Numbered from the stretch's first letter, positions 2,002 through 19,931 are shown. The stretch: 20,751 nt of DNA from Candidatus Thalassarchaeaceae archaeon (GCA_030747675.1 JASLKH010000090.1:1-20751), one strand, 5' to 3'. Translations and numbers: made by a program. The notes: generated by a model from the sequence alone, not told the origin.

Positions 2002-2072
2002 CTGATTCAGGGTGTCCTTGGCGTGGGTGTCAATGAACCTTCGCTATGGCAAGAATGGTATCAAATATCGTC

Positions 2073-2103
2073 TGCATTGACCATACGTAGTATGGTCGAT
2101 GTA
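2073..2103. promoter_or_regulatory. Dyad (14-bp arms, 12 Watson-Crick pairs plus 2 G-T, 3-nt GTA spacer) in the rfcS / giant-gene divergent intergenic region
   Basis: TGCATTGACCATAC-GTA-GTATGGTCGATGTA read directly. The inner 8 bp GACCATAC/GTATGGTC are perfect. Function is inferred. Confidence 0.5.
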
Positions 2104-2136
2104 CCACAACCACTTAACAGCAGGACCACCCCTCAG

Positions 2137-2145
2137 GGGGTGAGG
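2137..2145 (+). promoter_or_regulatory. Putative ribosome-binding site of the giant surface-protein gene
   Basis: GGGGTGAGG contains the archaeal SD core GGTGA, 5 nt before ATG 2149, which begins a signal-peptide-like sequence. Confidence 0.5.
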
Positions 2146-2148
2146 CGT

Positions 2149-5100
2149 ATGACGAGCGTAGTGACAAATTGGAAATCAGCGAGTGCTTCTTTACTCTTGG
2201 TTGGTATGATGTTGTTGAGTACCTGGGTTGGTATTTTTGACATTAATCAGAAGTTGGATGACACCACAAAAATTCAGAGAATTACTGCTAGTGATAGCTT
2301 GACTATGGATACACAGACAAATTCTAGTCTTCCATCGAACACATACGGCAGTGCTCAAAACTTGATGATCGGAGATGCTGAATTCACCAGTGCCAAAATC
2401 CTAGCCTCCTTTGATTTAACAGGCACAAGCGGCACTCTGCAAACAACTTCTGTTGTAGAATCAGCATCGATTAGCCTCCATTGCCAACGATTTTCCCAAT
2501 TAGCAGTTGGTGGTACGACCATTTATCCTGCAATGCTATTGGCTAACTATAGTGAGTCAAATGCGAATCATAATGAAAGTGATACAGGAGTTAATTGGAA
2601 TGTATCGGGTGCTGATGGCTTAGGGGTAGACCGTGATCAGTGGGAGCCAGGAACATCGGTTACAATTAGCTCTAGTGCCACAGTGGAGGTTAATATCACA
2701 GCCTTGGTGCAAGATGCATTACGTGATGGGAAAACAAACATGAGCATCATCCTTTCAGCGGTTGGTCAGCCAATTTATTGCTCGTCTAGTGAGCATACAA
2801 CGACTGCTTTCCGACCATCAGTAGACTTTGTCCATTCAATTGGAATTGCAAATACACAAGGCTCAGTTAACGTAGATGGTCCTCTATCTGGCTCCATTTT
2901 GTCCGACGAATCTCAACTTGCGATTCGACCAAATTTACACCCTACTGTGTCTTGGTCCAATATGACAGGAAATGGCCTTGAAATTCAATTCTCAAATGGA
3001 AATGACTTCCGAGCTGTATCAGATGGTGATTGGGTGTGGAATTCTTGGGATGACTCAAGTTCGTTCTCAATGAACAATTTTGAATTCGATACTCCAAATT
3101 CAAACCTATCTGGAGGATCATGGGTATTCTTCCGCATGCGAACTACAAATGATACGATCCTTGGCCCTTGGTCTTATGGCGGTCATTTCGGTCTCCCTGC
3201 ATCGATTGGGACAGTTGATTTGAACAATGTTGCTTCGATTGAATTAGGGAATGATTCCATCGGTTTAGGATTTGGAACAGTTCATGATACATGGATGCTT
3301 TCAGGAAATTCATCTTACAACGGTGAGCAAGATTTCCGATATCGAGTGGGTCATTCTAATTCCAGTACTGAGCAAAACATGGAAGCTATTTTCAAACTTA
3401 ATATGGGTACGATCCCACTTCATCAAAATGTGACAATTGAAGATGCCACATTGAATATTCGAAGAACAGGGAGAACTGGTGCCCCAGTGATTTCTGTATG
3501 GGTTTTGGATTCATCTGGACATGTGATGTCCGAATTAAATTGGGATAATTCAAGCAATGGCGTTGCTTGGAATGCACAAGAACGTGTTACGGAATTTGGT
3601 AATCTTGTGGGTTCAGTCGATGGAAACCAGAGTTATGCAACATTGAGTTGGGATATATCTTCAGTAATACAGAATTACCTGCGCACTAACCAACAAGGAG
3701 ATATTGATTTCTTAATCACTGGATATGGGCTTGCAGGAGAGGAAATTGAATTTGCATCGGGTGACATTGATGCACCTTCCTACCGCCCACATGTTGATAT
3801 TGATTATACATGGGGCGATAATAGTGCTACAGCCCTTTCATCTTCGGTGCAGCCCGACGGAAGGGCTGCATGGGATGTTTCGAGTTGGTCCCTAGTGAGT
3901 ACGTTGACACCCACACTTAGTTGGAATGTGACATACGATCCAGTTTCAAATTCAGCAAATGATGTCATCATCGAATTAATTCCAGGAGGCTCTGGACCCG
4001 GAGAGGAAGTAATGCACAGAGTCGACAGCCGAACTAACGGTGGGTTTGATTTGGCGAATGGTGAATTCACAATACCATCAAATTGGGGACTTGGTTATGG
4101 AGAATGGTATTCATGGCGCATTCAAAGTGTTGAGAATGATGAACGTAGTAATTGGTATTCAACTAAATTATTGGTATCAAAAGTGAATTCTTCTTCCTTG
4201 GGTAATGGGGATCATGAATTGCGACTGAGCCATGGGAATGGTACATTGCCAACTTCACAGCAGTCACCTGAATGTGGCGATACCACTCTCGAAAGTGGGT
4301 TGGCATCAAGTACAAATCTTGACAACCAAGATTTGACAGCAAGTTCCACTCAAGTTATTTTGATTGGTTGTAATTTACCCTCTCACCAATTACCCGATGG
4401 TATGGCAGTAGTTTCTGCTACACTACGTATGCGTACACACCAATATTCTGGAATTTCAACATTCCCAGTCTCATTAACACTTCACGAAAGCAGCGAGCAC
4501 AATTGGGATGAATCCGCAGCAACATGGAATACTACTGATGGAGTTACACCATGGAACGGTGTTGGTGCTAGCGGAACAGAGAGAGTAATGGCTCTAGAAA
4601 GTGTAGATATTGAATATGATTCTACTTGGTATGAATGGAATGTTACAGGAGCAGTTCAAAGTGCAATGCGTTCTGGTGTTTCAGCAGATTTCATCATGAC
4701 TTCTACTAGTTCCACCTCTGTTACATTCTATGATCATTCAAATGTAAATCATCCTCCGGAGTTGGTCATAATTTACACAAATGGTTCCAACGCAGCACCA
4801 AATGTACCAATCGATATGACTCCAAGTAATGGGGATTGGATTCTCAGTGGTGACTACACCTTCACGGTTGATCAGACTCCAACCTTGTCTTGGAATGAAA
4901 CAGGAGCTACTGTCGCTAATGGTTGGCAGATTCAAGTTGATGGTGATAGTGGGTTTGGTTCAAACTCCTTGCTTACTTTTTCTTCATGGATTGACACAAG
5001 TTCATTCAGCGGTACATCATTCACATTTGCAAATGATTTGAGTGAAGGTGAAGAATTCTACTGGCGCGCTCGTGGAATTTCTGCAACAGGACAAATTGGC

Positions 5101-8100
5101 TTGTGGTCTGTAGGCACCAGCTTCGTTATTCCTGATTTGGATGTATACCAGATTGATTCAGATACATACAAAGTGAATATGGGCCATGGGGATATTTTGT
5201 CTGATGGCAGTATGCCATTGTTTACGGACACCTGGATTTCTTGGGCGCCCTCAAGTTTGAATGATACTCACGCCAGTGATGACACCCTCTTCATTTCCGG
5301 AACATCGAGTGCTCTTATCGAGATTCCAATCGATGGAATTGGTGCACTACCATCTCCAGCCAATGCGAAATTGGTAAGTGCGTCCATCAGTTTCCATGTA
5401 TCTACCAACAACTCGAGCACACCCTCAATCGCCATCTATGAAACCTTACAAGATTGGAATTCTTCATCAACTGGACTTGCTTATGATGGCACAACAAACT
5501 GGAGTTCTCTTGGAGGATCAGGAATTCAAGATCGTTCCGAATGGATTGATGTTGTTATTGATCAAGCGGCAAGTGTGAGAATGGTTTTGGACATATCTGA
5601 AATCGTTCAAGCAGCCATGACACGTGGCGATGATAGTGTGGGCTTGATGCTCAGTGTCGAGGCAAATTCCAACGACCGAATTGTGTTGGCCAGTACAGAG
5701 ACACAGTTTGATGCCAATGAACCCGAACTATCTCTGACTTGGCAGAATGGCACCGCTACACCACCGACACAAGCGGCGACCATTGTTTCTCCCGCGAATA
5801 GCGATATTCTGTGGGACTTCCCATCAATGTCTGCAGAGGATAACCCTGTATTCACATGGAGTCATCCAGCAGCGTCCAATGTTACCGACTGGCGATTATT
5901 CGAATACTACACGAATGATGGCCCTTGGGCCGGCTTAGGAGTCGTCGACAGTCGAGAATGCGGTTCTACCTGTATTTTTGATATGACAAATATGTCGTTG
6001 TCCTTCCCATCTGTCTGGCTTGATCAAGATGAAGAATATTCTTGGATTATTCAGCCGATTCAAGATGGAATGTATGGTCCACGTTCATCAGTTGAAGACT
6101 TCATTATCCCAAACGACATTGGTGATGCGGTCAACAGTACCGATTACTGGGTTGACTTGTCGAATGGAAATGCACATGCTGGAACTGGAAGTTATGATGT
6201 CACACAGGGTGCATACATCGATTCTTGTACTCCAAATACAGCATTTGGTTCCTTCGCGAATTACTTACCCATAGGGTCCTCAAATGGGGGTCCAGGTTGT
6301 ACCAATGCAGGTCATGAATCCCGCTCTTTACTGAATTTTAACATTTCAAATGTACCAATAATGGATGGTAATCCATGGCAAGTTGCCGAGGCTACTGTGG
6401 AATTGTATCGATGGGGTGGTTCATCTAGTTATACAACTAGTATTTCAGTATCAGATACATACTGTGACTGGGTTGAAGCAAGCGTTACTTGGAATGATTG
6501 TGCCACCAATAATTCATGGCAAACATCTGGGGCATATGGTGTAAATGATGCAGGTGTGCCTGTATCAGTTACCGATGTCAGTACAACAGGTTGGTATTCT
6601 TGGGACGTAACTCCATTGTTACAACAAGCACGAAGTAGTGGTACCGACGTACTGAACCTCCTATTTGCTTCAGAGGATCCAAATTTGATTGCTCGCCATT
6701 CATTTATTCATGAAGATGCAACTGGTTCTTATTTATCGTATAGACCAGTGCTGAATATCACTTATCGCGCAGGTTCTCAATCAGTACCATCATCCCCCAC
6801 TTGGGATTCATCCCTCACCACGAATGGTCCATTCACCTCTTGGGATTCTAGCTCATTACGACCAATACCACTCAATCCCTTGAATTCGGTTTGGACCCAC
6901 CCCTCAGCCAGCACGATTGATTCTTGGGAGATACAACATGCGTTAGATGAGCGGTTTACGGATTCTTCGAGAATTTACGATTCTAGCGATTCTTCAACAT
7001 GGCTAAACTCCACCTTTGATATCACGAACTTAACGATGTTGACACCTTCCAGTGAAGCCCAAGGAGATCACTGGAATCATCTACGAATTCGTGCTGTGCG
7101 AGATGGTGTTTACAGCAATTGGTCGGCCCCATTCCAAACTCGAGTTCCCGACGAGCAGGGTAGCGATGATGGAGCAGGAAATTATACTGTTACTATGCAA
7201 AGAGGTGTAGTGTTCACTGATTCTGGATTATTGCCATCAATGCCAGATACATGGATCGGTTCCAATGCTATTGGGCAAACCCAAAATCATGGCGCTGAAA
7301 CTACAATTAAAGTTGGAGTGGACCCTGGTTCTTCTGGACATGATGCAGTAGGTTTAGTCTCTATTGATCTAACTGAATATCCATATCCATCGACAATGCT
7401 CCCAACATCTGTAACTCTACGAATGTATGTTGCAAGTATCACAGGTACCGGCGCTCATAGTATCTCGATTCATGACTGTGCTTCATTCACAGAGTCGACA
7501 ACAACATGGGGTAATTTTAACCCAAATACCCAATGTAATGGCACAGCATCATCTTCTATGACCTCTACAAGTACGAATGCAGGGGTTTGGTATGAATGGG
7601 ACGTTACAGGAATTGCACGTTCTGCTTGGCTTGGAAGTGGCGTCATGTCGATGGCTTTGAAATCATCTTGGGCCGGAACAATTTCCCTTACTTCTGCCGA
7701 GGGTTCAACCACATATGCGCCTGAGTTAGAAGTTGAATATGTAGATAATCCAAATAATGCTTCTTCACCAGTTCAGGTGTCTCTTGTTTCTCCTGAACAT
7801 TTGGAAGTTGTTTACGATGTCAACGGCCAGTACACACTTGGAGTAGATACTAGACCAGCCCTAATCTGGAATGGGTTAAGTGATGCTACAGGATATGTTC
7901 TCATCCTGAGTAATGAAAGTGGTTCACAAACGTACCAATCGTGGGATTCAAACAGTAACTCAGGTTTCATCGCTTGTAGTTCGCAACCTGCTTCAACTTG
8001 CTCATGGCAACCGACTTTTGACCTTGCAGTTGGGGAAATTTACACATGGTCCATACAGGCATTGAATGGTTCAGTCCCAGGTCCACGTTCAGTGCCCTGG

Positions 8101-11100
8101 ACATTTGGGATTGGTAATCCAGATATTACATATGTTGGAAATCACGTTCACACCATTAAAATTGAAGAAGGTGCAGATGTCGAAGATCTTGGACATGTGC
8201 CAATTTGGGACACTCATATCAGTGAAGGTGCACCCAGTACCGCACATGGGTCAGAAAATCTGCTTCAAATTGGAAATGGGTGTGATTCAGGCTCAACTAA
8301 TCGTTGCTACGGATTATATGAGGTCGATATGGGACTCATGGGCGCACTTGACTTGTTGTCAGTGAACCCACATTCTGCAAGTCTTTCGGTTTATGTTCAA
8401 GGGATTGCAGACATTAGTGGTGCGAATTATTTGGATTTGACAGCTTATGCAATAATCAATCCAAATTATGAGGAAAGTGGAGCAACTTGGGATTCAGCAA
8501 CTACAGGTGTCAATTGGAATCAGTCTGGAATGCAATCTGGAATTGATTACAGTAATCTCCCATTGGATACGGTCCGAGTAATGGGTAGTTTCACTGGTGG
8601 TTGGATTACTTTTGATGTTAGTGGGGCAATGACGACAATGAATGGTACAGTCTCAATTCTCATTATTGGAACTCCAAATTCAGGAAATATGCTTCTTGAA
8701 GTTCGTTCAAGTGAATGTTCTCTCTTCAATTGCAAACCTAAGTTAGAATTCAATTATACTTCGGTAGATTCAATTTCAATTAGCGGGCCTTCTTCAACAG
8801 ATGCAGATACAGCTGTTAGTTTCTCAGGAAACTTACTCGATTCGGCCGGCGGAACTTTGGCAGGGGATTTGATCTGGACTTCAAGTAGTGGTTCTATTGA
8901 TTCAAATGGCTTATTCACGCCTGACCAGACTGGAATTGTGCAAATTACAGCAAGCTTTGGTCAAGTTAGTGTTATGCAAAACATCACAGTTTCTGCAGGA
9001 GTCCCCCTCACACTGATTGTGACACCACTTGTGGCTTCTCTGACGACCGATGATGTGTTTGAACTTGGCCAAGTGAAGGTGATTGATGCTAATGGGAATG
9101 TTGTGCCTGGTGAAGTAATCACATTAGGGGCAAGTAATGGTACCATTGTGCCCGGTACAACGGTCACCACTCCAGTGTCTGGCGTTAGTTGGGTGCCGTG
9201 GACAACAGGGCAACAATTCTTGAATATTTCATGGCAGTCCCAAACAATTTCTATCCCAATTACAGTAACCGTGGGCGTCCCTGATTATTTCGAAATATTC
9301 GGTGACAGCACTATAGAAGCGGGTAACTCTTCAACATATGATTTCACAATACATGACTGGCGAGGTAATCAGATGGATCGTTCAAATGCTGGACCAATTA
9401 CTTGGGGTGCAGTTAATGGAGACATGGATAATTCAACAGGAACATTTACTGGAGATTCTATTGGTGAATGGACTATTTGGGTAGAAGATTCATATTGGCA
9501 AATTAGTAGTACATTCATTGTTACAGTGAACTATGGAGATATTGATGATTTAAAGGTAATAGCAATCGGTCCAAATACAATCATTGTTACAAGTACGCCT
9601 ACAACCTCGAAAGTCGATTTAACTGCAGATGAGAGTGTTACATTCACAACAATTCGAATTGATGTGAAAGGTAATGAAGAGACCGTATTTGTCCCCTTAT
9701 CCTCATGGTCGAGTAGTGACGAGTTGTCGGTATTTTCGGACAATTCCTCCAACTATCCTATCAAGTGGGATGCATCGAAGCCAGGGTTACAGACGGTAAC
9801 AGTTTCACTGGAAGGTGTATCGGTAACAATCCCGATGAATGTTGAACATGGAATACCTGTTCGTATTGAAGCAGATGCTGATCAGACTACTCTGGCAAGT
9901 GCTGACCCACGTGAAGAAATTGAGTCATATGCCTTTGATGCAGATGAAAATCGTTGGCCGATTTCAGCAGAAGAATGGTCATTTACAAATTCCAATGCTG
10001 ATCCAGAATGGCTGGAACATAGTCAAGGGACTTACACATTCTTCTATCCAGTGACAGAAGGTACTTGGGAAGTAGAATTACGATACACGGATTCATCAAT
10101 ACCAATGACATTCTATGATTCGATTGAATTCATTGTAGTCCCTGGTGTTTTGAGTTATATCACAGTGGCCGAGGATGCCATTATTACCGCTGATGAAACA
10201 CATGATTTGGGACCAACTGCTACCGATGAAAATTACAATACATTACCTGTTGATGGATTGTACTGGTATATGTGGGACAATTCCAATTCCCAATCCCGTC
10301 CTTCAGCATGCTCCATAAGTCTTGGTTGGGATGACATAACCGATTCAATGCGATCGGACAGTTATGTATGGAACGCCTCATTGGTTGGCACATACACAAT
10401 TTGTGCAATTGGAGGTAGCGGGAGTGCAGCATTACCGGCAATGTCTGAGGTAGAGGTAGTTCATGGTGAAATCGCATCTGTTTGGCATAGTGCGTATATC
10501 GGTTACGAGTACAATGGAGAAGGTGAGTCAGTCCATATCGGAGAAGTTGAGAATATGCAATCCACCTCAATCATAGCGGGCATGAGTCCATTTGTCACAC
10601 TTTCAGTAATGGATTCGGATGGTAACGTTTTCTTCCCCTGGGATGTAACTTGGACGAGTAACAGTGTCGAACAATTTTCAGAGGGTGATTATTTCATCGT
10701 GAATGAGGGAATAGGTTACACATTCCTAGGTACGAAAAATCAGACCTTTGACCTTGAATATAGTGTTGGTGACTGCACGAGTTGTACTGGTATTTGGACT
10801 GTGAACATTGCATATGCTGAATTAGCCTCAATCACAGCAGTTGCAAGTGCATCAGGTGTTGTCCCTGGAGACAGTATTTCAGTTGAACAACAAACAACCA
10901 TTACGATTACCGCAACAGGAGCCGATCAATTTGGAAACCCAGTTCCAATTAGTTTATCCAGCCTTTTCTCAAGTGATGCAGATTCAAATTTGAATGCAGT
11001 TACGAGAATTGATGACACCACATATGAGGTATACATGTTGAATGAAGGATCTAATTCAATCACTGTAATGGATGGTGTAGTTAGTGATACAGTGGAAGTG

Positions 11101-11475
11101 AATGTTGATGGCACAATTGCAGGTTTCTTTGAAGCTAATTCACCATTGTCATGGATTGGCTTGGGTGTAGTCGTATTCTTACTGATAGGCGTTGTTGTTG
11201 TTATTGCGGTTATTGTTCGTCGGGCAGGGGACTCAGATGATGAGTACGACGATGACATGGAATATCCAGAAGATGATTACAATGAGATGCCAATTTCAAC
11301 TCCTGATTCAGAGCCAACCGAGAGTGAACCTGCTGGTGAAAGTGACGATTATAATGCAGAGGATGACCCTAATTACCGGGTGGATGAAGATGGCACAGAA
11401 TGGTGGGAAGATGATGATGGAACTTGGTGGTACCGAGATTCTGGAATGGAAGATTGGGCCGAGTGGACAGAGTAA
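2149..11475 (+). CDS. Giant (~3108 aa) membrane-anchored cell-surface protein: signal peptide, 7 DNRLRE/CBM96-like domains alternating with 6 FN3/Ig-like spacers, 8 Ig-like stalk repeats, TM helix, acidic tail with Trp-rich terminal motif
   Basis: Uninterrupted ORF. The start is moved from the track's 1735, which overlaps rfcS, to ATG 2149 (SD present; MTSVVTNWKSASASLLLVGMMLLSTWVG). Recurrent DT-W/H-I...SAxL...W-x-E...ATW...W...G...WxxWDVT...RPxL pattern. TM WIGLGVVVFLLIGVVVVIAVIV at 11152-11217. No catalytic motif recognised. Confidence 0.9.
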   Translation: MTSVVTNWKSASASLLLVGMMLLSTWVGIFDINQKLDDTTKIQRITASDSLTMDTQTNSSLPSNTYGSAQNLMIGDAEFTSAKILASFDLTGTSGTLQTTSVVESASISLHCQRFSQLAVGGTTIYPAMLLANYSESNANHNESDTGVNWNVSGADGLGVDRDQWEPGTSVTISSSATVEVNITALVQDALRDGKTNMSIILSAVGQPIYCSSSEHTTTAFRPSVDFVHSIGIANTQGSVNVDGPLSGSILSDESQLAIRPNLHPTVSWSNMTGNGLEIQFSNGNDFRAVSDGDWVWNSWDDSSSFSMNNFEFDTPNSNLSGGSWVFFRMRTTNDTILGPWSYGGHFGLPASIGTVDLNNVASIELGNDSIGLGFGTVHDTWMLSGNSSYNGEQDFRYRVGHSNSSTEQNMEAIFKLNMGTIPLHQNVTIEDATLNIRRTGRTGAPVISVWVLDSSGHVMSELNWDNSSNGVAWNAQERVTEFGNLVGSVDGNQSYATLSWDISSVIQNYLRTNQQGDIDFLITGYGLAGEEIEFASGDIDAPSYRPHVDIDYTWGDNSATALSSSVQPDGRAAWDVSSWSLVSTLTPTLSWNVTYDPVSNSANDVIIELIPGGSGPGEEVMHRVDSRTNGGFDLANGEFTIPSNWGLGYGEWYSWRIQSVENDERSNWYSTKLLVSKVNSSSLGNGDHELRLSHGNGTLPTSQQSPECGDTTLESGLASSTNLDNQDLTASSTQVILIGCNLPSHQLPDGMAVVSATLRMRTHQYSGISTFPVSLTLHESSEHNWDESAATWNTTDGVTPWNGVGASGTERVMALESVDIEYDSTWYEWNVTGAVQSAMRSGVSADFIMTSTSSTSVTFYDHSNVNHPPELVIIYTNGSNAAPNVPIDMTPSNGDWILSGDYTFTVDQTPTLSWNETGATVANGWQIQVDGDSGFGSNSLLTFSSWIDTSSFSGTSFTFANDLSEGEEFYWRARGISATGQIGLWSVGTSFVIPDLDVYQIDSDTYKVNMGHGDILSDGSMPLFTDTWISWAPSSLNDTHASDDTLFISGTSSALIEIPIDGIGALPSPANAKLVSASISFHVSTNNSSTPSIAIYETLQDWNSSSTGLAYDGTTNWSSLGGSGIQDRSEWIDVVIDQAASVRMVLDISEIVQAAMTRGDDSVGLMLSVEANSNDRIVLASTETQFDANEPELSLTWQNGTATPPTQAATIVSPANSDILWDFPSMSAEDNPVFTWSHPAASNVTDWRLFEYYTNDGPWAGLGVVDSRECGSTCIFDMTNMSLSFPSVWLDQDEEYSWIIQPIQDGMYGPRSSVEDFIIPNDIGDAVNSTDYWVDLSNGNAHAGTGSYDVTQGAYIDSCTPNTAFGSFANYLPIGSSNGGPGCTNAGHESRSLLNFNISNVPIMDGNPWQVAEATVELYRWGGSSSYTTSISVSDTYCDWVEASVTWNDCATNNSWQTSGAYGVNDAGVPVSVTDVSTTGWYSWDVTPLLQQARSSGTDVLNLLFASEDPNLIARHSFIHEDATGSYLSYRPVLNITYRAGSQSVPSSPTWDSSLTTNGPFTSWDSSSLRPIPLNPLNSVWTHPSASTIDSWEIQHALDERFTDSSRIYDSSDSSTWLNSTFDITNLTMLTPSSEAQGDHWNHLRIRAVRDGVYSNWSAPFQTRVPDEQGSDDGAGNYTVTMQRGVVFTDSGLLPSMPDTWIGSNAIGQTQNHGAETTIKVGVDPGSSGHDAVGLVSIDLTEYPYPSTMLPTSVTLRMYVASITGTGAHSISIHDCASFTESTTTWGNFNPNTQCNGTASSSMTSTSTNAGVWYEWDVTGIARSAWLGSGVMSMALKSSWAGTISLTSAEGSTTYAPELEVEYVDNPNNASSPVQVSLVSPEHLEVVYDVNGQYTLGVDTRPALIWNGLSDATGYVLILSNESGSQTYQSWDSNSNSGFIACSSQPASTCSWQPTFDLAVGEIYTWSIQALNGSVPGPRSVPWTFGIGNPDITYVGNHVHTIKIEEGADVEDLGHVPIWDTHISEGAPSTAHGSENLLQIGNGCDSGSTNRCYGLYEVDMGLMGALDLLSVNPHSASLSVYVQGIADISGANYLDLTAYAIINPNYEESGATWDSATTGVNWNQSGMQSGIDYSNLPLDTVRVMGSFTGGWITFDVSGAMTTMNGTVSILIIGTPNSGNMLLEVRSSECSLFNCKPKLEFNYTSVDSISISGPSSTDADTAVSFSGNLLDSAGGTLAGDLIWTSSSGSIDSNGLFTPDQTGIVQITASFGQVSVMQNITVSAGVPLTLIVTPLVASLTTDDVFELGQVKVIDANGNVVPGEVITLGASNGTIVPGTTVTTPVSGVSWVPWTTGQQFLNISWQSQTISIPITVTVGVPDYFEIFGDSTIEAGNSSTYDFTIHDWRGNQMDRSNAGPITWGAVNGDMDNSTGTFTGDSIGEWTIWVEDSYWQISSTFIVTVNYGDIDDLKVIAIGPNTIIVTSTPTTSKVDLTADESVTFTTIRIDVKGNEETVFVPLSSWSSSDELSVFSDNSSNYPIKWDASKPGLQTVTVSLEGVSVTIPMNVEHGIPVRIEADADQTTLASADPREEIESYAFDADENRWPISAEEWSFTNSNADPEWLEHSQGTYTFFYPVTEGTWEVELRYTDSSIPMTFYDSIEFIVVPGVLSYITVAEDAIITADETHDLGPTATDENYNTLPVDGLYWYMWDNSNSQSRPSACSISLGWDDITDSMRSDSYVWNASLVGTYTICAIGGSGSAALPAMSEVEVVHGEIASVWHSAYIGYEYNGEGESVHIGEVENMQSTSIIAGMSPFVTLSVMDSDGNVFFPWDVTWTSNSVEQFSEGDYFIVNEGIGYTFLGTKNQTFDLEYSVGDCTSCTGIWTVNIAYAELASITAVASASGVVPGDSISVEQQTTITITATGADQFGNPVPISLSSLFSSDADSNLNAVTRIDDTTYEVYMLNEGSNSITVMDGVVSDTVEVNVDGTIAGFFEANSPLSWIGLGVVVFLLIGVVVVIAVIVRRAGDSDDEYDDDMEYPEDDYNEMPISTPDSEPTESEPAGESDDYNAEDDPNYRVDEDGTEWWEDDDGTWWYRDSGMEDWAEWTE
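2290..8760 (+). repeat. Seven diverged protein-level modules (DNRLRE/CBM96-like domain plus FN3-like spacer), period ~1 kb
   Basis: Domain-opening 'DT' (or equivalent) motifs fall at about 2308, 3285, 4280, 5227, 6210, 7243 and 8209. Each domain ends in RP/PE-x-L-x-I/V-x-Y/W. Spacers carry 'P-T-L-S-W' and 'Y-x-W-R-I/A...G-x-W-S' patterns. The repeats are not visible as DNA-level identity. Confidence 0.75.
8761..11115 (+). repeat. Eight Ig-like (Big_2/intimin-like) ~80-115 aa stalk repeats
   Basis: Recurring G-x-P/L-x-x-I/L-x-I...TAD...D-x-x-G-N...W...G-x-W/Y-x-I/V...V-x-x-G (DSAGG, DANGN, DWRGN, DVKGN, DADEN, DENYN, DSDGN, DQFGN). Confidence 0.75.
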
Positions 11476-11490
11476 GAAAATCTCTCAAAT

Positions 11491-11516
11491 AACCGTCCGC
11501 CTATAGGCGGACGGTT
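11491..11516. other. Perfect 26-bp GC-rich palindrome between surface genes 1 and 2 (hairpin: 11-bp stem, TATA loop)
   Basis: AACCGTCCGCCTATAGGCGGACGGTT equals its own reverse complement. It starts 16 nt after the giant gene's stop. Confidence 0.85.
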
Positions 11517-11556
11517 CGTCGCTCCCTTCAAGTTCTATGAGTCGTTGCGGTAGAGC

Positions 11557-14500
11557 ATGGCAGTTAGGCGCCACTTCTGCATTGCAAGTGTCCTAGTTGC
11601 GCTAATCTTGATTCAAACTTGTATTTCTGCACCGAATCATGTGATGCCCTCTTCAGAAAATTTATCGGATAAAAATGGTCAAAACAATCTTGTTAACAAT
11701 GGAGATGGAACTTGGACAGTAACCTATGATTCGAGTCAAGATACGACTTTGGATAGTACAAATCCCTCAACAGTGATGTCTCAGGACCCGATTTTGGAGG
11801 TTGGCCATTTCAATGCACTTTCTTCCCAACGCACCTCTATTTTAGGCCTAGATTTGTCCAGTGCTGGTTTTTGGACCAATGTTACAATTGTGAATGCATC
11901 ATTGGACTTGAAGATTGAGTCGATTGTTGATTCTGCAGATATTCACGTTTGGAAGTTGATTAGAGAGAATTGGAATGTAGACGAAGCAACTTGGATTTCA
12001 AGAAATTCAAGTTCAACATGGGAATATTCAGGTGGCCTTGGAAATCTCGATAGTGGTGGATTAATGGATCGAAAGTTGATTGATTCATCAGACTCTGTTG
12101 TAAGCCTGAATGTCACTAGAGCCCTAAAGATAGGTCAATATCGGCAACTGAATGGTCTGGATCCTCGAGCGGGAGTTTTGCTAACATCTGGTGGCGATGA
12201 GTCTGATTCAATGGCAAGGTTTTATTCATACGATGACACTGTTTCTACAAACCGTCCAATTTGGAACATTACCTTTCATTGGACCCCACCAACAATGCTT
12301 ACCACCCAACCGAGTTGGGTTGATATTTATCCGAAACCAATTGCTTCAGTAGACATTGATGGCCAAATCAATTTTGAGGGAACCATTCGTTCAGAGGCAG
12401 CAATGAAAATTTCTGCTGGGCTAGCATGGTCTTCGGATCGTAATACGATTGACTTGAGTGGCCAATTGAGCGTGACTCAGGCAGGGATTACTACGGTAAC
12501 TGCAAGTTGCATATGGGCATCGGGAGTTCGTGAAGTAGTTGTTTTCCCGGGGACGCCTCTGGACATAGTTGCGCTTCAATCCAATTATTCAATTACTGTT
12601 GACGATATTCAAGAAATCCATGTAGTTGGATTGGATCAGTATGGGAATCATGTTTCGGACATTCCAATCTCGTGGTCGGCTTCTTCAGGAATAATTTCAG
12701 AAGATGGATTTTACACACCAACATCCATCGGAACACATACAGTTGCTGGCAATTGGGGTGGCCACATTGCTATCGTCAATGTGACAGTTGGAGTTGGATT
12801 GGCATCAAACATCATTCTTCCAGAAGGGCTTACTGCAAGGGCAGGAGTTGGCTTTCAAATCACTCCCCAGCTAGAAGATAAACTAGGAAACCCTCTTCCA
12901 CTAAGTGCCGGTGCTGGTTTGTTTTGGAATGTTGAAAAAGGAAACATCGATGGTTCAGGATATTTCATGGGTCAGGAGATTGGAGTATGGCAAATCAATG
13001 TAACAAGTGGAACTGGGGCTAATGGTACAGGTTGGATTACTGTTACCCCGGGATTAATCGATTATCTTGAGATTGTAGGTCCAAACCGAGTTGTAGGTGC
13101 GGATGAAGTTGTTCCTTTGGATTTAAGATGGCATGACTTAGTAGGAAACAATGAGTCGGTGGTAATACCTATTTCTAATTGGAGTGCGGGAAATGGTAAT
13201 TTTAGAATGGGCGACGGCATAGTTGAATGGCTCCCCAATCAAGAAGGCGAATGGGTGATTTCAGTTATCGCAGAAGGCGAGGAAGCCCTAATTTCAGTCA
13301 CCGTGGAAAATGGAGAAATCGTTCAAGTTTGGATTGACGTAGTGAATGATATTATTACTGCTGATGGCGAAACTGAGTTGATTTTACAGGCAGAAGATAG
13401 CAGGGGAAACCGGTGGTCGATTCCAGCACAATGGTCAGTAGTTGAACCAGAAGCATCATCATCTTTAGTTGAAGAATTTGGGATTACACACTTCGTTGGA
13501 AAAATTGCAGGTGAATGGACAATTCAAGCTCTACACCAATCACCTGAAGGTACATACAATGTTTCTTCTAAAATCACAGTTTTACCGGGTCGACTTGCTC
13601 GAATTGTCATCCCTGGAGATGGAACAAGCATTTCCTGTGACGATGCATTTTCTCTTTCACCAGTTCTAACAGATGCAGATGGAAACAATATAGAAGATGT
13701 GACACTTAATTGGACAATTAATGGTGAAAGTTTCACTCAAGAAATTTTGCTTTCAGGAAATATTTGGATGCCAGTAGAAGTTGGTAATTACCTTATTGAA
13801 GCTGATGCAGCGGGCCGTTTCGCTCAATCTCGTATTACTGTGTATCAGGGCGAACCATACCAAATAGTGATTGAAAGTAGTCTTGAAGGATTCTCAACAA
13901 ATAGTGGTGTACCATTCAATTTAACGACGTATGCGGAAGATTTGGACGGAAATAGAGCCCCATGGCCTGTAGAGTGGGAAGTGTCAACAACAGCATTTGA
14001 GATACAGGAAACTGCATGGTCGGGGGTTTACGAAGTACGTGGATTAAAAGAAGGTGCATGGGATATTGTTGCATCGAATGGCACAGCATCTGGAACGATT
14101 TCAATTGAAGTTATCACAGGTGACCCTGTTGGCTTGCGTGTAGGTCCGCATAGTGGAGGAGGAAATCAGGGAGAATCAATTTCAATGATGGTTGAGTTAG
14201 TAGATTATGGTGGTAACTCAATTCCACTTCAACCAGCAAAATTGGAATTTGAAACAAATGCAGGGACTTTCTTGCATGATGAAGGCCCATATTGGAATCT
14301 TCAACTTGAAGAAGCAGGGGAAACCCAACTCATTACTATCAGATATCAGAGTTGGGAGACTGAAACATTTGTTGATGTAGAAGCAACTGGCCTTGATCGC
14401 TTAACTGAAACAACTTCTGGGCAGATGTTGCTTGGAGGGTTTGCTACAGCAATAGTGGTAATCGGGATTCTCTTTTTCATTGTTCGTAATAGAGAAAATT

Positions 14501-14868
14501 CGGAAGATTGGGAGGGTGAATATGAGTGGGATGAATTATCCTCTGATGCAAATTCAGATTCAGAATTGGGGGATTCAATCCCTCAGGATAATCCAATATA
14601 TGCCGGAAATGATCGCATGACCCGACAAGATCGTCGAAGATTAAGCCACCAGAGGAAACAGCAAAGAATACGTGAACTCACTGATGCAACAGAACAATTG
14701 CAATCAACAACTACAATTGAAAGTAGTGCACAATCTGCATCGGCAACAGGTGTACTACAAGCAGTAGCAGGCACTGTACAAGGCCAGTCTGGTTGGTACG
14801 TAACTTCTCAAGGTGAAAATCAGTACTGGGAAGTTGATTCCACCGGTCGTTGGAATAGGAGGAATTAA
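11557..14868 (+). CDS. Membrane-anchored surface protein (1103 aa): signal peptide, one DNRLRE/CBM96-like domain, 8 Ig-like repeats, TM helix, cytoplasmic tail with Trp-rich C-terminal mini-domain
   Basis: Signal MAVRRHFCIASVLVALILIQTCISA. DNRLRE-like QDTTLDS...NASLDL...WNVDEATW...LNVTRAL...RPIWNITF at ~11740-12282. TM MLLGGFATAIVVIGILFFIV at 14425-14484. Confidence 0.9.
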   Translation: MAVRRHFCIASVLVALILIQTCISAPNHVMPSSENLSDKNGQNNLVNNGDGTWTVTYDSSQDTTLDSTNPSTVMSQDPILEVGHFNALSSQRTSILGLDLSSAGFWTNVTIVNASLDLKIESIVDSADIHVWKLIRENWNVDEATWISRNSSSTWEYSGGLGNLDSGGLMDRKLIDSSDSVVSLNVTRALKIGQYRQLNGLDPRAGVLLTSGGDESDSMARFYSYDDTVSTNRPIWNITFHWTPPTMLTTQPSWVDIYPKPIASVDIDGQINFEGTIRSEAAMKISAGLAWSSDRNTIDLSGQLSVTQAGITTVTASCIWASGVREVVVFPGTPLDIVALQSNYSITVDDIQEIHVVGLDQYGNHVSDIPISWSASSGIISEDGFYTPTSIGTHTVAGNWGGHIAIVNVTVGVGLASNIILPEGLTARAGVGFQITPQLEDKLGNPLPLSAGAGLFWNVEKGNIDGSGYFMGQEIGVWQINVTSGTGANGTGWITVTPGLIDYLEIVGPNRVVGADEVVPLDLRWHDLVGNNESVVIPISNWSAGNGNFRMGDGIVEWLPNQEGEWVISVIAEGEEALISVTVENGEIVQVWIDVVNDIITADGETELILQAEDSRGNRWSIPAQWSVVEPEASSSLVEEFGITHFVGKIAGEWTIQALHQSPEGTYNVSSKITVLPGRLARIVIPGDGTSISCDDAFSLSPVLTDADGNNIEDVTLNWTINGESFTQEILLSGNIWMPVEVGNYLIEADAAGRFAQSRITVYQGEPYQIVIESSLEGFSTNSGVPFNLTTYAEDLDGNRAPWPVEWEVSTTAFEIQETAWSGVYEVRGLKEGAWDIVASNGTASGTISIEVITGDPVGLRVGPHSGGGNQGESISMMVELVDYGGNSIPLQPAKLEFETNAGTFLHDEGPYWNLQLEEAGETQLITIRYQSWETETFVDVEATGLDRLTETTSGQMLLGGFATAIVVIGILFFIVRNRENSEDWEGEYEWDELSSDANSDSELGDSIPQDNPIYAGNDRMTRQDRRRLSHQRKQQRIRELTDATEQLQSTTTIESSAQSASATGVLQAVAGTVQGQSGWYVTSQGENQYWEVDSTGRWNRRN
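12313..14391 (+). repeat. Eight Ig-like stalk repeats
   Basis: Seven clear D-x-x-G-N motifs (DQYGN, DKLGN, DLVGN, DSRGN, DADGN, DLDGN, DYGGN) plus one degenerate first repeat, each ending in V-x-x-G. Confidence 0.75.
14857..14862 (+). promoter_or_regulatory. Strong SD (AGGAGG) embedded in the last codons of gene 2, serving gene 3 (translational coupling)
   Basis: AGGAGG lies 7 nt before GTG 14870. The gene 2 stop is TAA 14866-14868. Confidence 0.7.
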
Positions 14869-14869
14869 T

Positions 14870-17362
14870 GTGTCTAGGCGTATTCTTTGTGCCGTAGTTT
14901 TCATTCTCCTTTCATCTTGTTTTGTAATTGAATCAACACAGTCAGAATCAATGGGTCGAAGTTGTTCATCGAATCCACCTTCTGGGACTTCAGTTCACCA
15001 TATTTCTATTACACCAGGTGGCCCAATTTCTATACCAGCTGATGCAAATTTAGATATGAATGCGGTTGCTTACGATAGCCAAAATAACGAATTAAATGTT
15101 CCAATTTCTTGGGATGTTACCAATGGGGTTTTACAAAATTTCGGAGGAGGTTCGGCTCGTTGGTCTCCACAAGTCACTGGCAGTCAAATTGTAACTGCAT
15201 GTACTGGTGAAATTGAAACTAATTTAGATGTAAATGTAGTCCCCGGCCCTCCTTTGGGGCTAGAGTTGGTTTCTAATTCCAATAATATTACCGCTGATCA
15301 ATCGATTGAATTAGTTCCATTACTAAATGATCAATTTGGAAATACATGGACCCCCTCAATACCTTTTGCCAACTGGACACTTCCGGCTGGGACATCAATT
15401 AATTTGCCAACAGACGGTTCACCCCCCACTCTTACACCAGGTCCCACCGGTTCGATGATTGTCGAAATTTCCTGGGGGCAATGGACTGCATCATCTACAT
15501 TCAATGTCAGTACCGGGCTTCCAGTGAATTTGATGATTGATCATGATTCAAACACCATATCTTCAGATGATGTGCTTGATTTATGTGCCCATCTAGTTGA
15601 TCAAAGAGGGAATTCGTGGCCGGTTTTCGCGACATGGACTACATTTGGTGGAAATGCAGACTCATCTTTGTCAAATACTCAAGGTAATTGTATCGTTTTC
15701 GATGCAGGCCCAGTTGGTGATTGGACTGTATTTGCAGAAGAGGTGAATGGGATGACCTCAGGTCTTGCAATTTCCGTAAGTGCAGGAAAATTAGCACAGA
15801 TTAGCCTAGATAATCTTCCTGAAGAGATGAACATTGGAGAACCTTATCCACTCATTGCAGTAGGGTACGATGCCGCAGGAAATGAAGTCACTGTAAGTCA
15901 GTGGAATTGGTCTGTAACAAATGGTCCATCTGATGACCCTATTTCAACAGAAGATGGCGAAGCCCATTTTTCCCCCGAAAAATCAGGCCAGCACACAATT
16001 CAAGTGATGGCTGCTGGAGTTCCTGCAGCTATTGACGTGGAAGTATATCCTGGTATAACAACATCAATTGCGATTGAAATTTTGGATCAAGACATTTCAG
16101 ATAGTGGTAAATTGATTACTGGAACAACTATTGAACTTCAAATATATTCAGTTGATTCAAATGGTAATCGAGACCCTGTAAATGTTCTTTTAGAAAACTG
16201 GACTGTTCAAAATGGGTATGGTGTCATTGAAAATGCGTCAGCAGGTACTGGGCGTTATACATTCACTGCGGATGGAATTGGATACGTCAGTATTCATACA
16301 ATGGTTGAAGGGGCAGAAGGTGCTCTTTACCTTGAAATTTTAACTGGTGAATTGGACTCACTTGAAGTATTATTGCCAACAGATGGGTTACAGGGAAGGA
16401 ATGTAGATTTCACAGTAAAAGGGTTTGATATATCTGGAAATGAAGTTCCGATAACTCACCCCTGTGCGGTTGAAATTATTACAGATGTAGGTAAAGCAAC
16501 TTGTGATGATAATGGTTGGACACTTGAGTTAGATGAATCAGGAGAACAAGTAGTCTATGCTAGAATTGATTCAGCAGACGGTAGCTCATTCATCGATGTC
16601 GAAGAGACATGGTTTGGTTGGGGAAACAATACGCAAGTTATCATCGTGAGTAGCCTAATCCTCGTTGCAATTATCTCAGCGGTCTTAGTATTCTTATTCA
16701 AGCATCTTGGAGATCGAATTGAAGAAGAAATTGGGATAATTGAAGATGAAGAGAAGAAAAAATCGGATACTATTGATGCTGAAAATTCGGTTGGTTTGAT
16801 TTCAGGTTTACCTCCCCCTGCATTCAATTTCCCTCCACCCCCTGATATAAATCCAGTAATATCTCCTGGGTTGGTATCTCCTGTATTTCAACCAACAGGA
16901 ACATCATCGTTGCCTGCTCCTCCGTTAGTCAGTCAAACAGGTGGCCCTCAGGTTGAAACTCCCACTGACCCATTCTCGCTTTTCATTAATACCCCTGCTG
17001 AACCTGAACCGAGCGAAGTTCAACCTCAGCAAGTTGAGTTGCCTCCGCAGTATGATCTGGAAGAACCTCGAAATCAATCTGAACCCTCTCAAGAAATTCA
17101 GTCCGTACCAATTCAGGATGACACTTGGGGAGAGATGTCAGGTGATTGGAATGACACATCTGAAACAATAAGTTCAGCAGCAGCAGAATTCGCGCAAATT
17201 AGTCATGAAAATCGGCGTGGTGACGGGCCACGAAATACTTCTAGTGTTCCTTTGAGACCACTACCTGGTACTGAAAAAGGGGCTGATGGTTGGTATTTTG
17301 ATGCAGAAGACCGGCCTACTAACTGGACCCATTCAGAGTCAGGAGGTTGGGTTCAAGAGTAG
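14870..17362 (+). CDS. Membrane-anchored surface protein (~830 aa): signal peptide, 6 Ig-like repeats, TM helix, Pro-rich cytoplasmic tail, Trp-rich C-terminal mini-domain
   Basis: Start re-called to GTG 14870 (SD AGGAGG; [M][21 protein letters not shown]). [23 protein letters not shown] at 16637-16699. Pro-rich [14 protein letters not shown] follows. Confidence 0.88.
14993..16609 (+). repeat. Six Ig-like stalk repeats
   Basis: DSQNN, DQFGN, DQRGN, DAAGN, DSNGN and DISGN motifs at ~85-100 aa spacing. Confidence 0.75.
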
Positions 17363-18171
17363 CGTTCATTTTCATTTGGGAAATCTTCAGATCTCACATC
17401 GGAAATATATTGATCAACTGCTCCTGTAATTTCATCATGCAAGTTCAGATATCGTCGGAGGAACCGGGGATTGAATTCATGAGTGATTCCGAGTAGATCG
17501 TGAATCACGAGAACTTGCCCATCGACATCTGCGCCAGCACCTATCCCAATTGTGGGGATATTGACCGCTTCCGTAACTCGCCTTGCAAGGTCCGCAGGAA
17601 TTTTTTCTAATACAATTGAAAAGCAACCTGCTTTTTCTAATAATTTCGCGTCTTCAATTAACTTTTTAGCTTCTTCATCTTCTCGCGCCCGAACTGAATA
17701 TGTACCGAATTTGTAGATGGATTGAGGAGTAAGTCCAAGATGCCCCATTACAGGAATCCCCGCAGTTAGAATTCTTTCAATCGATTCAACAATTTCTGAT
17801 CCACCTTCTAACTTGACGGCATGTGCCCCACTTTCCTTCATGATTCGGATTGCACTGCTCAGCGCTTGTTTAGAATCTCCTTGGTATGTTCCAAATGGCA
17901 TATCGCAGACAATTAATGCTCGATTTACACCTTTCACGACGCATTGAGCGTGGTAAATCATATGTTCAAGTGTGATTGGAACTGTTGTATCATTTCCAGC
18001 CATCACGTTGGATGCCGAATCTCCAACTAAAATCACATCAATTCCAGCACCGTCGATAATTTTCGCCATTGAATAATCATATGCAGTGAGCATGGTTATT
18101 TTCTCACCAGCTTGTTTCATTGACAAGAGGGTATTTGTCGTAATTTTCTGAGCCTTACCTGCTATCGACAT
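17353..18171 (-). CDS. panB: 3-methyl-2-oxobutanoate hydroxymethyltransferase (ketopantoate hydroxymethyltransferase)
   Basis: Motifs [51 protein letters not shown] and [12 protein letters not shown]. Likely start ATG 18171 (MSIAGK) with GAGGGT upstream; the track's 18204 start is less likely. Confidence 0.97.
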
Positions 18172-18233
18172 AGTTACCCTCGAGACTCGCGAGTATAGCA
18201 TCACGCTTCAATCACTCGGAGTCAAAAACAGAC

Positions 18234-19850: not shown

Positions 19851-19931
19851 AAGTTCAATTGGTCTGTATACGAAATTAATTAGACTGGATGGCTTCAGTC
19901 TCTTCATCAAAGGTTCGGTATTGATTAAAGC

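Follow-up and report, generated by a model that had tools for sequence, protein, structure and literature searches.

A Poseidoniales-specific locus for two to three paralogous membrane-anchored surface proteins, the largest bearing seven CBM96-fold modules

The window analysed here is a 20,751-nt stretch from a Candidatus Thalassarchaeaceae archaeon (GCA_030747675.1, JASLKH010000090.1:1-20751) in which three large genes lie on the plus strand: gene 1, encoding the class-1 giant (2149-11475, an ORF of 3108 aa), gene 2, of class 2 (11557-14868, 1103 aa), and gene 3, of class 3 (14870-17362, 830 aa, GTG start); these ORF lengths agree with public gene calls. Genes 1 and 2 are separated by 81 nt and genes 2 and 3 by 1 nt. 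At the latter junction (14855-14872, plus strand) a Shine-Dalgarno-like GGAGG, located 8 nt upstream of the gene 3 GTG, precedes the TAA stop, a single T and the start codon, a spacing that would be compatible with translational coupling and that is also found in its 1-nt form in both orthologous loci checked (L024 and L026). The co-orientation, the two spacers and the embedded Shine-Dalgarno sequence described in an earlier interpretation made from this DNA alone (the sequence-only reading) were all confirmed. The locus, at ~15 kb about 0.9% of the genome, is positioned between an RFC small-subunit gene, which is oriented divergently from the giant across a palindrome-bearing spacer, and panB.

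As judged by TM, domain and AF2 analyses, the gene products (p1, p2 and p3) share one architecture, as had been claimed: an N-terminal hydrophobic signal, an ectodomain built of a head, where there is one, and an Ig-like stalk, one C-terminal TM helix and an acidic cytoplasmic tail whose end is rich in Trp. Rather than a PGF-CTERM/archaeosortase sorting signal, 81 (p1), 126 (p2) and 216 (p3) residues with conserved folded ends follow the TM. In the giant, a signal or signal-anchor leads into a head (2308-8751, plus strand, as are all gene features below) of seven CBM96/DNRLRE + FN3-like super-repeats. The modules, located by a genome-wide six-frame search, lie at 2308-2820, 3286-3801, 4279-4770, 5308-5739, 6208-6762, 7276-7737 and 8209-8751, each with an FN3-like spacer domain of about 150 aa after it. 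The stalk of about nine Ig-like domains (8752-11136, aa 2202-2996) was recognised by blastp paralogy to gene 2 and by weak Big_1/Big_3 Pfam matches, and is followed by a hydrophobic TM segment (11155-11229, p1 about 3003-3027) and, up to 11472, the acidic tail, the conserved end of which is the class-1 Trp-rich cap (about 11362-11472). An uncleaved N-terminal anchor on the giant would alter this geometry. The seven modules are collinear across ten orthologues, the central ones being the best conserved; among the giant orthologues fetched, module number is constant at seven and length stays within 3035-3183 aa, despite 19-41% identity (an order-level divergence). Such constancy is unusual for adhesins, and a structural role would also be compatible with it.

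Gene 2 encodes a single DNRLRE module behind its signal peptide (11737-12273), eight Ig-like domains (12310-14382), a hydrophobic TM segment (14413-14490, p2 953-978) and a tail that contains a basic helix and ends in the class-2 cap (about 14752-14865). In its AF2 model p2 comprises a beta-sandwich head, the eight Ig-like domains, the TM helix and a small three-stranded C-terminal sheet. Invariant columns of class 2 concentrate at p2 504-940 and 1066-1099; the conserved core of the class is the five membrane-proximal Ig domains plus the cap. Class-2 proteins span about 650 to 1230 aa, with 4-8 Ig domains and one head module or none, the head being absent in some same-genus species and in five of the five Poseidoniaceae class-2 genes examined. 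Gene 3 encodes a signal peptide and a headless ectodomain of about six Ig-like domains (within 14870-17362), a hydrophobic TM segment (16637-16711, p3 590-614) and a Pro-rich tail ending in the class-3 cap (about 17237-17359). A possible lipobox in its signal peptide (LSSC) was rejected, as its orthologues do not share the Cys. Class 3 was seen only in Thalassarchaeaceae, and not in the five Poseidoniaceae loci fetched.

The stalks are paralogous: p1 2021-3056 is collinear with p2 62-1013 (24% identity, blastp E 2e-36), and p2 and p3 share 28% identity across 522 aa (blastp E 3e-27), which supports the relationship proposed by the sequence-only reading. In a quick IQ-TREE tree of the paralogues, classes 1 and 3 form clean clades and class 2 falls into per-family clades, each mirroring taxonomy. 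The ectodomains are acidic (pI 4.05-4.15), low in Lys (0.7-1.4%) and Ser/Thr-rich, with 53 (p1), 16 (p2) and 6 (p3) N-x-S/T sequons; sequon numbers exceed those of shuffles by about 2 to 2.6 SD for p1 and p2, though not for p3, and the tails of p1 and p2 contain none. We infer that the ectodomains are glycosylated and extended. The p2 stalk finds Foldseek matches among Ig arrays of adhesion molecules, the GhpA grappling hook and S-layer proteins (SbsB/SbsC, Sap, EA1). Searches against Pfam and NCBIfam matched no catalytic family in the three proteins or the inter-module segments, in agreement with the initial impression that a recognisable catalytic domain is missing; the catalytic GH/PL/CE module that a CAZyme with an appended CBM has in the same protein was likewise not found, and Pfam gave no match for the FN3-like spacers or the tails.

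The identity of the head modules is secure at the family level. Against the curated cut-offs of NF033679 and PF24517, p1 matches NCBIfam DNRLRE over seven stretches (E 4e-80, 267 bits, cut-off 34) and Pfam CBM96 (E 2e-46, 158 bits, cut-off 26), and each of the eight modules clears the cut-off on its own (38-69 bits). A six-frame search found exactly eight modules in the genome, seven in gene 1, one in gene 2 and none in gene 3 or elsewhere, making the locus the sole home of CBM96 in this genome. The heads graded 7/1/0 by the sequence-only reading are thus correctly counted here, but the grading varies, the class-2 head or class 3 being absent in relatives. A profile of the eight modules matches 7vbo_A along its full length (E 5e-8), this being the structure of the founding CBM96, TM6-N4 of the alginate lyase Dp0100 (PDB 7VBO; PMC9971899); a search of PDB sequences with a single module gave a chance match only. 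In an AF2 model of p1 residues 1340-2030 (moderate, pLDDT 69) beta-sandwiches alternate with FN3 folds. Its Foldseek matches include 7vbo (TM 0.70) and the chondroitin-sulfate CBM 8wab (8wab_B, TM 0.73), and among the top ones are the ectodomains of the leptin receptor and gp130. The modelled heads had been singled out as a point where a catalytic fold might surface; what emerged is a CBM96-like beta-sandwich plus FN3, with no catalytic family matched.

The alginate-binding groove of TM6-N4 is formed by Lys10, Lys22, Lys25, Lys27, Lys31, Arg36 and Tyr159 (PMC9971899). In the consensus of the eight modules the six basic positions read g, q, e, h, s and a (profile alignment), and at the positions of Lys10, Lys22 and Lys25 the eight modules hold two basic residues, an Arg in module 2 and a Lys in module 6, both at Lys25. 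The modules have 0-4 Lys each and are all acidic (pI 4.05-4.6). Since the modules are acidic and do not retain the Lys/Arg groove, the alginate specificity is not transferable, and alginate binding by the head modules is rejected at the key-residue level. The earlier proposal of polysaccharide capture retains the CBM96 fold but loses the basic groove; at the level of the fold, the modelled heads may nonetheless serve such capture. CBM96 in Poseidoniales has been mentioned only as a CAZyme count and read as alginate binding (PMC13753752), a reading that the residue-level data do not support.

At the other end of the proteins, the tails finish in Trp-rich motifs that are conserved across the order, with one cap class per paralogue, each conserved within its clade, and that are more strongly conserved than most of the ectodomain. 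The caps are cytoplasmic and are common to the trio and other proteins: in this genome the class-1 cap is also found at the end of a WD40/PBP-like type-I protein of 1340 aa and of a 233-aa protein that has neither signal peptide nor TM. The suggestion of a Trp-rich coupling module dedicated to the apparatus therefore does not stand, and the motif is better described as a general Poseidoniales tail cap. When 301 genomes of the phylum were searched with a tail-cap profile, matches came from Poseidoniales alone, and the profile gave only 156 matches in 1.84 billion representative proteins; the top multi-stretch matches of the tail profile (P0004, P0007, P0018 and others) led to no informative family. 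The p2 cap, modelled as a three-stranded sheet at a pLDDT of about 80, resembles in shape the WW domain (PF00397), the nearest named fold. None of the three tails matched any Pfam family up to E = 5, WW and DUF2510 (PF10708) included, and the WW-like shape is therefore only a resemblance. A search of the ESM Atlas with the class-2 cap and the soluble cap protein returned no named relatives.

The spacers upstream of genes 1 and 2 carry palindromes. A perfect 8+8 palindrome with a 3-nt centre (2079-2097), located between the RFC gene and the giant about 50 nt upstream of the gene 1 start, is single-copy in the 1.68-Mb genome; both arms are unchanged and the centre is variable in six same-genus loci, and it is a candidate operator or promoter element. 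The 81-nt spacer contains a GC-rich hairpin/palindrome (11491-11516, plus strand; 11-bp stem, 4-nt loop), followed by a conserved 17-nt motif about 20-35 nt before the gene 2 ATG. The hairpin is unique within the genome and is found in all 14 same-genus loci, although one of them has a degenerate 3' arm. Beside its invariant core, an A-T pair has become G-C through changes on both sides in three loci, and G.T occurs in two. Where the spacer measures 9-41 nt (Poseidoniaceae and genus g2), the hairpin is absent. It is a candidate 3' end or attenuator of gene 1, or else a candidate operator plus promoter of a leaderless gene 2-3 transcript. An Rfam search of the window found no known RNA.

In every genome checked, the class-2 gene is the immediate neighbour of the giant and runs in the same direction. 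In Poseidoniaceae the locus comprises these two genes: DNRLRE is present in 86 of 86 sampled genomes, and in each of the 29 genomes listing both tails, that of the giant and that of class 2 share a strand at a distance of 2.6-2.9 kb. The locus occurs in six Thalassarchaeaceae genera, with the trio confirmed in five and adjacent in every locus fetched. Within this family DNRLRE is all-or-none by genus: it was found in none of the 48 genomes (85% completeness or more) of seven small-genome genera, and five high-quality genomes of locus-less genera yielded no class-2-like gene or cap. In the closed genome of one such genus, only 63 nt separate panB from RFC, and the flanks are unchanged. The third family of the order, f2, has a lone 807-aa headless paralogue at the RFC-adjacent site, and its 93%-complete genome yielded no DNRLRE giant. 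Of the 80 class-2 relatives retained when 185,579 species genomes were scanned, nearly all bear Poseidoniales-type titles. Given the order-wide conservation and the loss as a block, the locus behaves as one evolutionary unit, inherited and lost together. Scattered orthologues, which would have argued against the genes belonging together as the sequence-only reading held, were never seen; adjacency, coupling-type spacing and whole-block loss were. A link to the archaellum was rejected: among Thalassarchaeaceae genera there are some with both archaellin and the locus, some with either one alone and some with neither.

Our preferred reading, to which we give a probability of about one half, is of a Poseidoniales-specific locus, passed on vertically, whose two to three paralogous products are type-I membrane glycoproteins acting as non-enzymatic, multivalent ligand binders. 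Each protein would be exported and anchored through its single C-terminal helix, with its Ig-like domains stacked into a rod. In the giant, the seven CBM96-fold/FN3 units would lengthen this rod, giving it a reach from the cell several times that of class 2 or class 3. The heads would most likely bind an external ligand multivalently and with low affinity; its probable nature is a glycan or glycoconjugate carried by particles, algae or other cells, and the shorter paralogues would be co-regulated companions at the base. The small class-specific Trp-rich fold of each tail probably docks on a shared cytoplasmic partner. Gene 1 may be transcribed alone, and gene 2 would be leaderless, with gene 3 translationally coupled to it.

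It is unlikely, in our estimate, that the three chains instead form an obligate heteromeric apparatus, standing side by side via membrane-proximal Ig domains, TM or tails as a height-graded organelle with a cytoplasmic module. Throughout the order the giant and class 2 are strictly adjacent and co-oriented; this, the 1-nt, GGAGG-bearing junction, the block loss, the membrane-proximal conserved core of class 2 and the collinear p1 and p2 stalks all argue for such an assembly; tandem duplication alone, however, also yields adjacent paralogues. Moreover, the lone headless paralogue of family f2, the lack of class 3 in the five Poseidoniaceae loci fetched and, in this genus, the hairpin and promoter-like motif that part gene 1 from genes 2-3 speak against obligate association, and class-2 length varies so widely that stalk lengths do not co-vary with the giant. 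A complex prediction, run without controls, paired giant and class 2 from the third-last Ig domain through the TM to the tail, using 11 aligned rows per chain; it scored 0.00 against a mark of 0.32 and counts neither for nor against binding.

We also doubt that the proteins are a structural cell coat. On that view they would supply most of the glycocalyx or S-layer-like envelope of these archaea, which are wall-less relatives of Thermoplasmatota; the giant would be the outer canopy, the shorter paralogues the understory and the CBM96/FN3 units spacers. The constant module number and length, the strong conservation of the central modules, the presence in every sampled Poseidoniaceae genome, the Foldseek matches to S-layer arrays and the acidic, Lys-poor, Ser/Thr- and sequon-rich composition with a C-terminal TM anchor, reminiscent of archaeal S-layer glycoproteins, are consistent with this possibility. 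Yet an essential envelope protein should be present throughout the lineage that depends on it, and seven Thalassarchaeaceae genera (48 genomes, one closed) lack the whole locus and any DNRLRE; it is therefore not an essential envelope of the order. The giant, at 330 kDa, is also far larger than any S-layer subunit known to us.

More speculative, and rather improbable as a whole, is the idea that the giant and its one or two short paralogues make up a single height-graded organelle, gained at the Poseidoniales root and discarded by streamlined open-ocean genera, with the caps plugging it and other cap-bearing proteins into one intracellular scaffold as a counterpart of integrin-type outside-in systems. 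A surface receptor set that relays ligand signals from the ectodomain via the single TM to the caps and the Pro-rich/basic tails, like tall cytokine receptors or integrins, is very improbable: the FN3/Ig ectodomain with one TM and a docking-type tail, the leptin-receptor and gp130 matches, the caps conserved beyond most of the ectodomain and the soluble protein with the same cap would suit it, but the receptor matches reflect only FN3 arrays, and the window holds no kinase, GTPase or other signalling domain.

The set of two to three paralogous ligand binders that we favour has partial counterparts among known systems. Its eight heads share family and beta-sandwich with CBM96/DNRLRE modules of CAZymes, FN3 neighbours included; unlike those enzymes, the trio has no catalytic module and repeats the CBM96 unit seven times in tandem on a membrane-anchored protein. 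The DNRLRE motif was first described from Methanosarcina disaggregatase-related and S-layer-type proteins (PMC9971899), which are archaeal, secreted and have repeated DNRLRE, as here, whereas the trio adds paralogous partner genes, a C-terminal TM and a long cytoplasmic tail closed by a folded cap. A weak Disaggr_repeat match falls under the Pfam cut-off. In Sulfolobus, the large outer protein SlaA and the shorter, membrane-anchored SlaB are encoded side by side, and haloarchaeal S-layer glycoproteins are C-terminally anchored and acidic. The trio resembles these systems in its adjacent large and short genes, its acidic, glycosylation-prone ectodomains and its C-terminal TM, but differs in that each protein has its own anchor, the proteins are mutually paralogous and the locus is dispensable in seven genera. 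GhpA of Aureispira (9flp/9fly), DSCAM, contactins and nucleoporin gp210, all matched by Foldseek, also form long tandem Ig-like rods, and gp210 and the cell-adhesion molecules are type-I membrane proteins like the trio; the likeness is at fold level only (9-13% identity), and head chemistry and tail caps are unrelated.

We found no published description of the three-gene locus, in line with the earlier statement that no such system is described in marine Thermoplasmatota. Poseidoniales genome surveys treat adhesion only via archaella, thrombospondin-type proteins and flotillin (PMC6461757). The class-specific partner genes, the block loss and the unique conserved palindromes upstream of genes 1 and 2 are new.

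No archaea are more abundant in the surface ocean than Poseidoniales, which, to our knowledge, are uncultured to date. The presence or absence of the locus splits Thalassarchaeaceae genera cleanly and independently of the archaellum, and it is therefore a ready genomic marker with which to test for particle-attached versus free-living lifestyles, as well as a concrete target for metaproteomics, cryo-ET and virus-receptor studies.

Three ORFs on the + strand make up the trio: gene 1 (2149-11475, 3108 aa; class 1, hereafter the giant), gene 2 (11557-14868, 1103 aa; class 2) and gene 3 (14870-17362, GTG start, 830 aa; class 3). The window is one whole contig of 20.75 kb, its parent genome measures 1.68 Mb and is 78% complete, and the ORF lengths are identical in the public gene calls. 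Genes 1 and 2 are separated by 81 nt, and at the junction of genes 2 and 3 a TAA stop is followed by a single T and the GTG start, with GGAGG 8 nt upstream. Housekeeping genes flank the trio: the RFC small subunit (1042-2001), divergent from it, and panB (17353-18204), with an APC-family amino-acid permease (18234-19910) and a RidA-family (RidA/L-PSP) gene (19960-20751) farther out, both on the - strand. The permease ends in an EF-hand calcium-binding motif (residues ~504-551), a fusion unusual for a prokaryotic transporter. The RidA/L-PSP gene has a long N-terminal extension, leaves the contig at its edge, and is matched by two neighbouring ORFs of 311 and 228 aa in a closed related genome, G210 (locus L037, 2701-4319).

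The three proteins (p1, p2 and p3, respectively) each carry a hydrophobic signal at the N-terminus and one other strongly hydrophobic helix, near the C-terminus and followed by Arg/Lys, beyond which 81, 126 and 216 residues remain, respectively. The N-terminal segment of the giant is the least canonical of the three and may serve as an anchor that stays uncleaved. All ectodomains have a low pI (4.05-4.15), contain little Lys and are rich in Ser, Thr and Asn, with 53, 16 and 6 N-glycosylation sequons in p1, p2 and p3, and none in the p1 and p2 tails. Residues 2021-3056 of p1 are collinear with 62-1013 of p2 (E 2e-36), and 28% of residues are identical between p2 and p3 across a stretch of 522; judged by sequence, the trio proteins are clearly paralogues.

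Seven stretches of gene 1 match NCBIfam DNRLRE (E 4e-80), and its match to Pfam CBM96 has E 2e-46. The sequence-only reading had counted seven, one and no head modules in the three proteins, and this proved exact, because searching the genome in all six frames returned only eight modules, each of them passing the curated cut-off. Gene 1 holds seven and gene 2 the remaining one, with none in gene 3 or the rest of the genome. The eight are old copies, with a pairwise identity of 18-23%. Their joint profile matches the founding CBM96 structure, 7vbo, across its full length (E 5e-8). An AF2 model of p1 residues 1340-2030 (pLDDT 69) consists of two CBM96-type and two FN3-type sandwiches in alternation, for which Foldseek returned 7vbo (TM 0.70), the chondroitin-sulfate CBM 8wab (TM 0.73) and FN3 arrays of cytokine receptors and contactins. 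The AF2 model of p2 (pLDDT 76) opens with a head sandwich (45-243) and eight Ig-like domains (252-942); past the TM helix (953-978) the chain is first disordered, then forms a basic helix (1023-1049) and finally, at the extreme end, a three-stranded sheet (1079-1101). Foldseek matches this model to arrays of Ig domains, namely those of gp210, DSCAM, contactins, the GhpA grappling hook, titin and bacterial S-layer proteins. Searches against Pfam and NCBIfam detected no catalytic family anywhere in the trio proteins.

The heads thus belong to the CBM96 family and fold, and function does not follow from that membership. The founding CBM96 binds alginate via Lys10, 22, 25, 27, 31, Arg36 and Tyr159 (PMC9971899). 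The six basic groove positions of 7vbo align with non-basic consensus residues in the modules, three of these positions, when mapped row by row, hold just two basic residues across the eight modules, and every module has a pI of 4.05-4.6. The earlier description of the heads as 'glycan-binding-like' is fair for the fold and for nothing beyond it. A recent survey (PMC13753752) took 'MGII had CBM96' to mean alginate binding; as the basic groove positions are non-basic and the modules acidic, this reading is unsupported at the residue level.

Gene 2 found matches in every genome among 40 relatives, and the twelve loci that we fetched all give one layout: RFC divergent upstream, a giant of 3035-3183 aa, a class-2 gene of ~650-1230 aa, a class-3 gene of ~810-980 aa in Thalassarchaeaceae only, and then panB. 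Poseidoniaceae pair the giant with a class-2 gene that lacks the head (863-888 aa), including on the published MG-II chromosome CM001443. In each of the 29 Poseidoniaceae genomes for which both tails were listed, these share a strand and are separated by 2.6-2.9 kb. The giants are collinear across all seven modules, with an identity to the window copy of 46-85% within the genus and 19-41% against Poseidoniaceae, highest in the central modules and lowest in the tip modules and stalk. In a tree of the 520 residues preceding the TM, built with a quick search only, classes 1 and 3 form clean clades, class-2 rows group per family and every clade mirrors taxonomy. Class-2 genes can do without the head, which is absent in four species of the window's genus (genes of ~650 aa) and in 5/5 Poseidoniaceae class-2 genes examined. 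A third family of the order Poseidoniales has one headless 807-aa paralogue adjoining RFC, and no DNRLRE giant was found in that family. Both this lone paralogue and the variation in class-2 length weaken the idea that the three proteins form an obligate hetero-complex, which we consider unlikely.

We surveyed DNRLRE in 151 genomes of the order with a completeness of at least 85%. It is present in 86/86 Poseidoniaceae genomes and in six Thalassarchaeaceae genera (g1, g2, g8, g9, g15 and g139; 15 genomes), and in 0/48 genomes of seven other genera of the latter family (g10-g14, g140 and g141). No class-2-like gene occurs in five high-quality genomes from the negative genera, and none of 13 sampled genomes of these genera has a tail cap, the Trp-rich end of the cytoplasmic tail. 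One negative genus is represented by a closed genome of 1.6 Mb, in which 63 nt lie between panB and RFC and the outer flanks are those of the window; the 15-kb block is therefore cleanly missing from a conserved site. Since both families hold the locus beside RFC, the simplest history is that the ancestor had the block and that it was lost as a whole later. The genera without the locus have the smallest genomes of Thalassarchaeaceae, all 1.3-1.7 Mb. The distribution is independent of the archaellum, as all four presence/absence combinations of the locus and archaellin occur among Thalassarchaeaceae genera. A structural coat would be favoured by the fixed seven-module design, yet the locus is dispensable in seven genera, and we regard this explanation, too, as improbable.

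Outside Poseidoniales nothing was found in the phylum, representative-protein and species-genome searches: the tail profile has no match in other families among 301 genomes of the phylum and matches just 156 of 1.84 billion representative proteins, and of 80 class-2 relatives retained when 185,579 species genomes were scanned, nearly all bear Poseidoniales-type titles. Two contigs with Poseidoniaceae-type class-2 genes (L064 and L074) are filed as bacterial MAGs, in a Verrucomicrobiales and a Yoonia bin, and are probably binning errors.

Within the window's genus, a GC-rich hairpin or palindrome between genes 1 and 2 (11491-11516), present once in the genome, is kept in 14/14 loci, one copy having a degenerate 3' arm; the pair next to its invariant core shows compensatory changes on both sides in three loci and is G.T in two. 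It is followed by a conserved 17-nt motif, ~20-35 nt ahead of the gene 2 start, the spacing at which an archaeal promoter would sit if gene 2 were leaderless. Gene 2 has no GGAGG of its own, and gene 1 has a GAGG-type site. The divergent RFC/giant spacer contains a perfect palindrome (2079-2097; 8+8 with a 3-nt centre), unique in the genome and kept in six same-genus loci; closer to the RFC start there is a conserved GTCAATGAACCT. In other genera, genes 1 and 2 are separated by 9-41 nt. We infer that the window's genus may read the locus as two transcription units, gene 1 alone and genes 2 and 3 coupled, and that loci with the 9-41-nt spacer would form a single unit.

The caps are specific to each paralogue class and conserved order-wide within it. 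They are not private to the trio: in the same genome (G000), the class-1 cap ends two further proteins. One is a 1340-aa type-I surface protein (locus L034, 1686-5708, + strand, contig C96) with a WD40 propeller, a PBP-like domain, Asp-rich calcium-type repeats and a TM, the cap sitting at the end of a tail that is short and basic; the order contains relatives of ~1400-1480 aa throughout. The other, a 233-aa acidic protein (L033, 6115-6816, - strand, contig C7) with the cap at its C-terminus, has neither signal peptide nor TM, which argues for a cytoplasmic role of the cap. This protein may act as an adaptor for a putative cap partner or compete for it, and cap-carrying ORFs of ~235-280 aa recur in many of the cap-bearing genomes listed by the tail-profile search.

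The trio is thus a real, conserved and co-inherited unit of non-enzymatic surface proteins. That its genes belong together, as the sequence-only reading held, is upheld: orthologues are adjacent and co-inherited rather than scattered, and the heads are CBM96/FN3 folds with no catalytic family. A receptor, with neither a signalling domain nor an identified partner, is very improbable. We give roughly even odds (about 0.5) to surface fibres of the lectin type, co-regulated and graded in length, that dock inside the cell via shared-type caps, because this fits the fold classes, the synteny and the block loss. The domain types are already known, as are giant archaeal surface proteins as a kind, and our literature search found no paper describing the trio locus. 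New are the fixed partner genes bearing class-specific caps, the optional class-2 head, the loss of the whole block from a defined chromosomal site in streamlined genera, the independence of the locus from the archaellum and the locus-specific palindromes.
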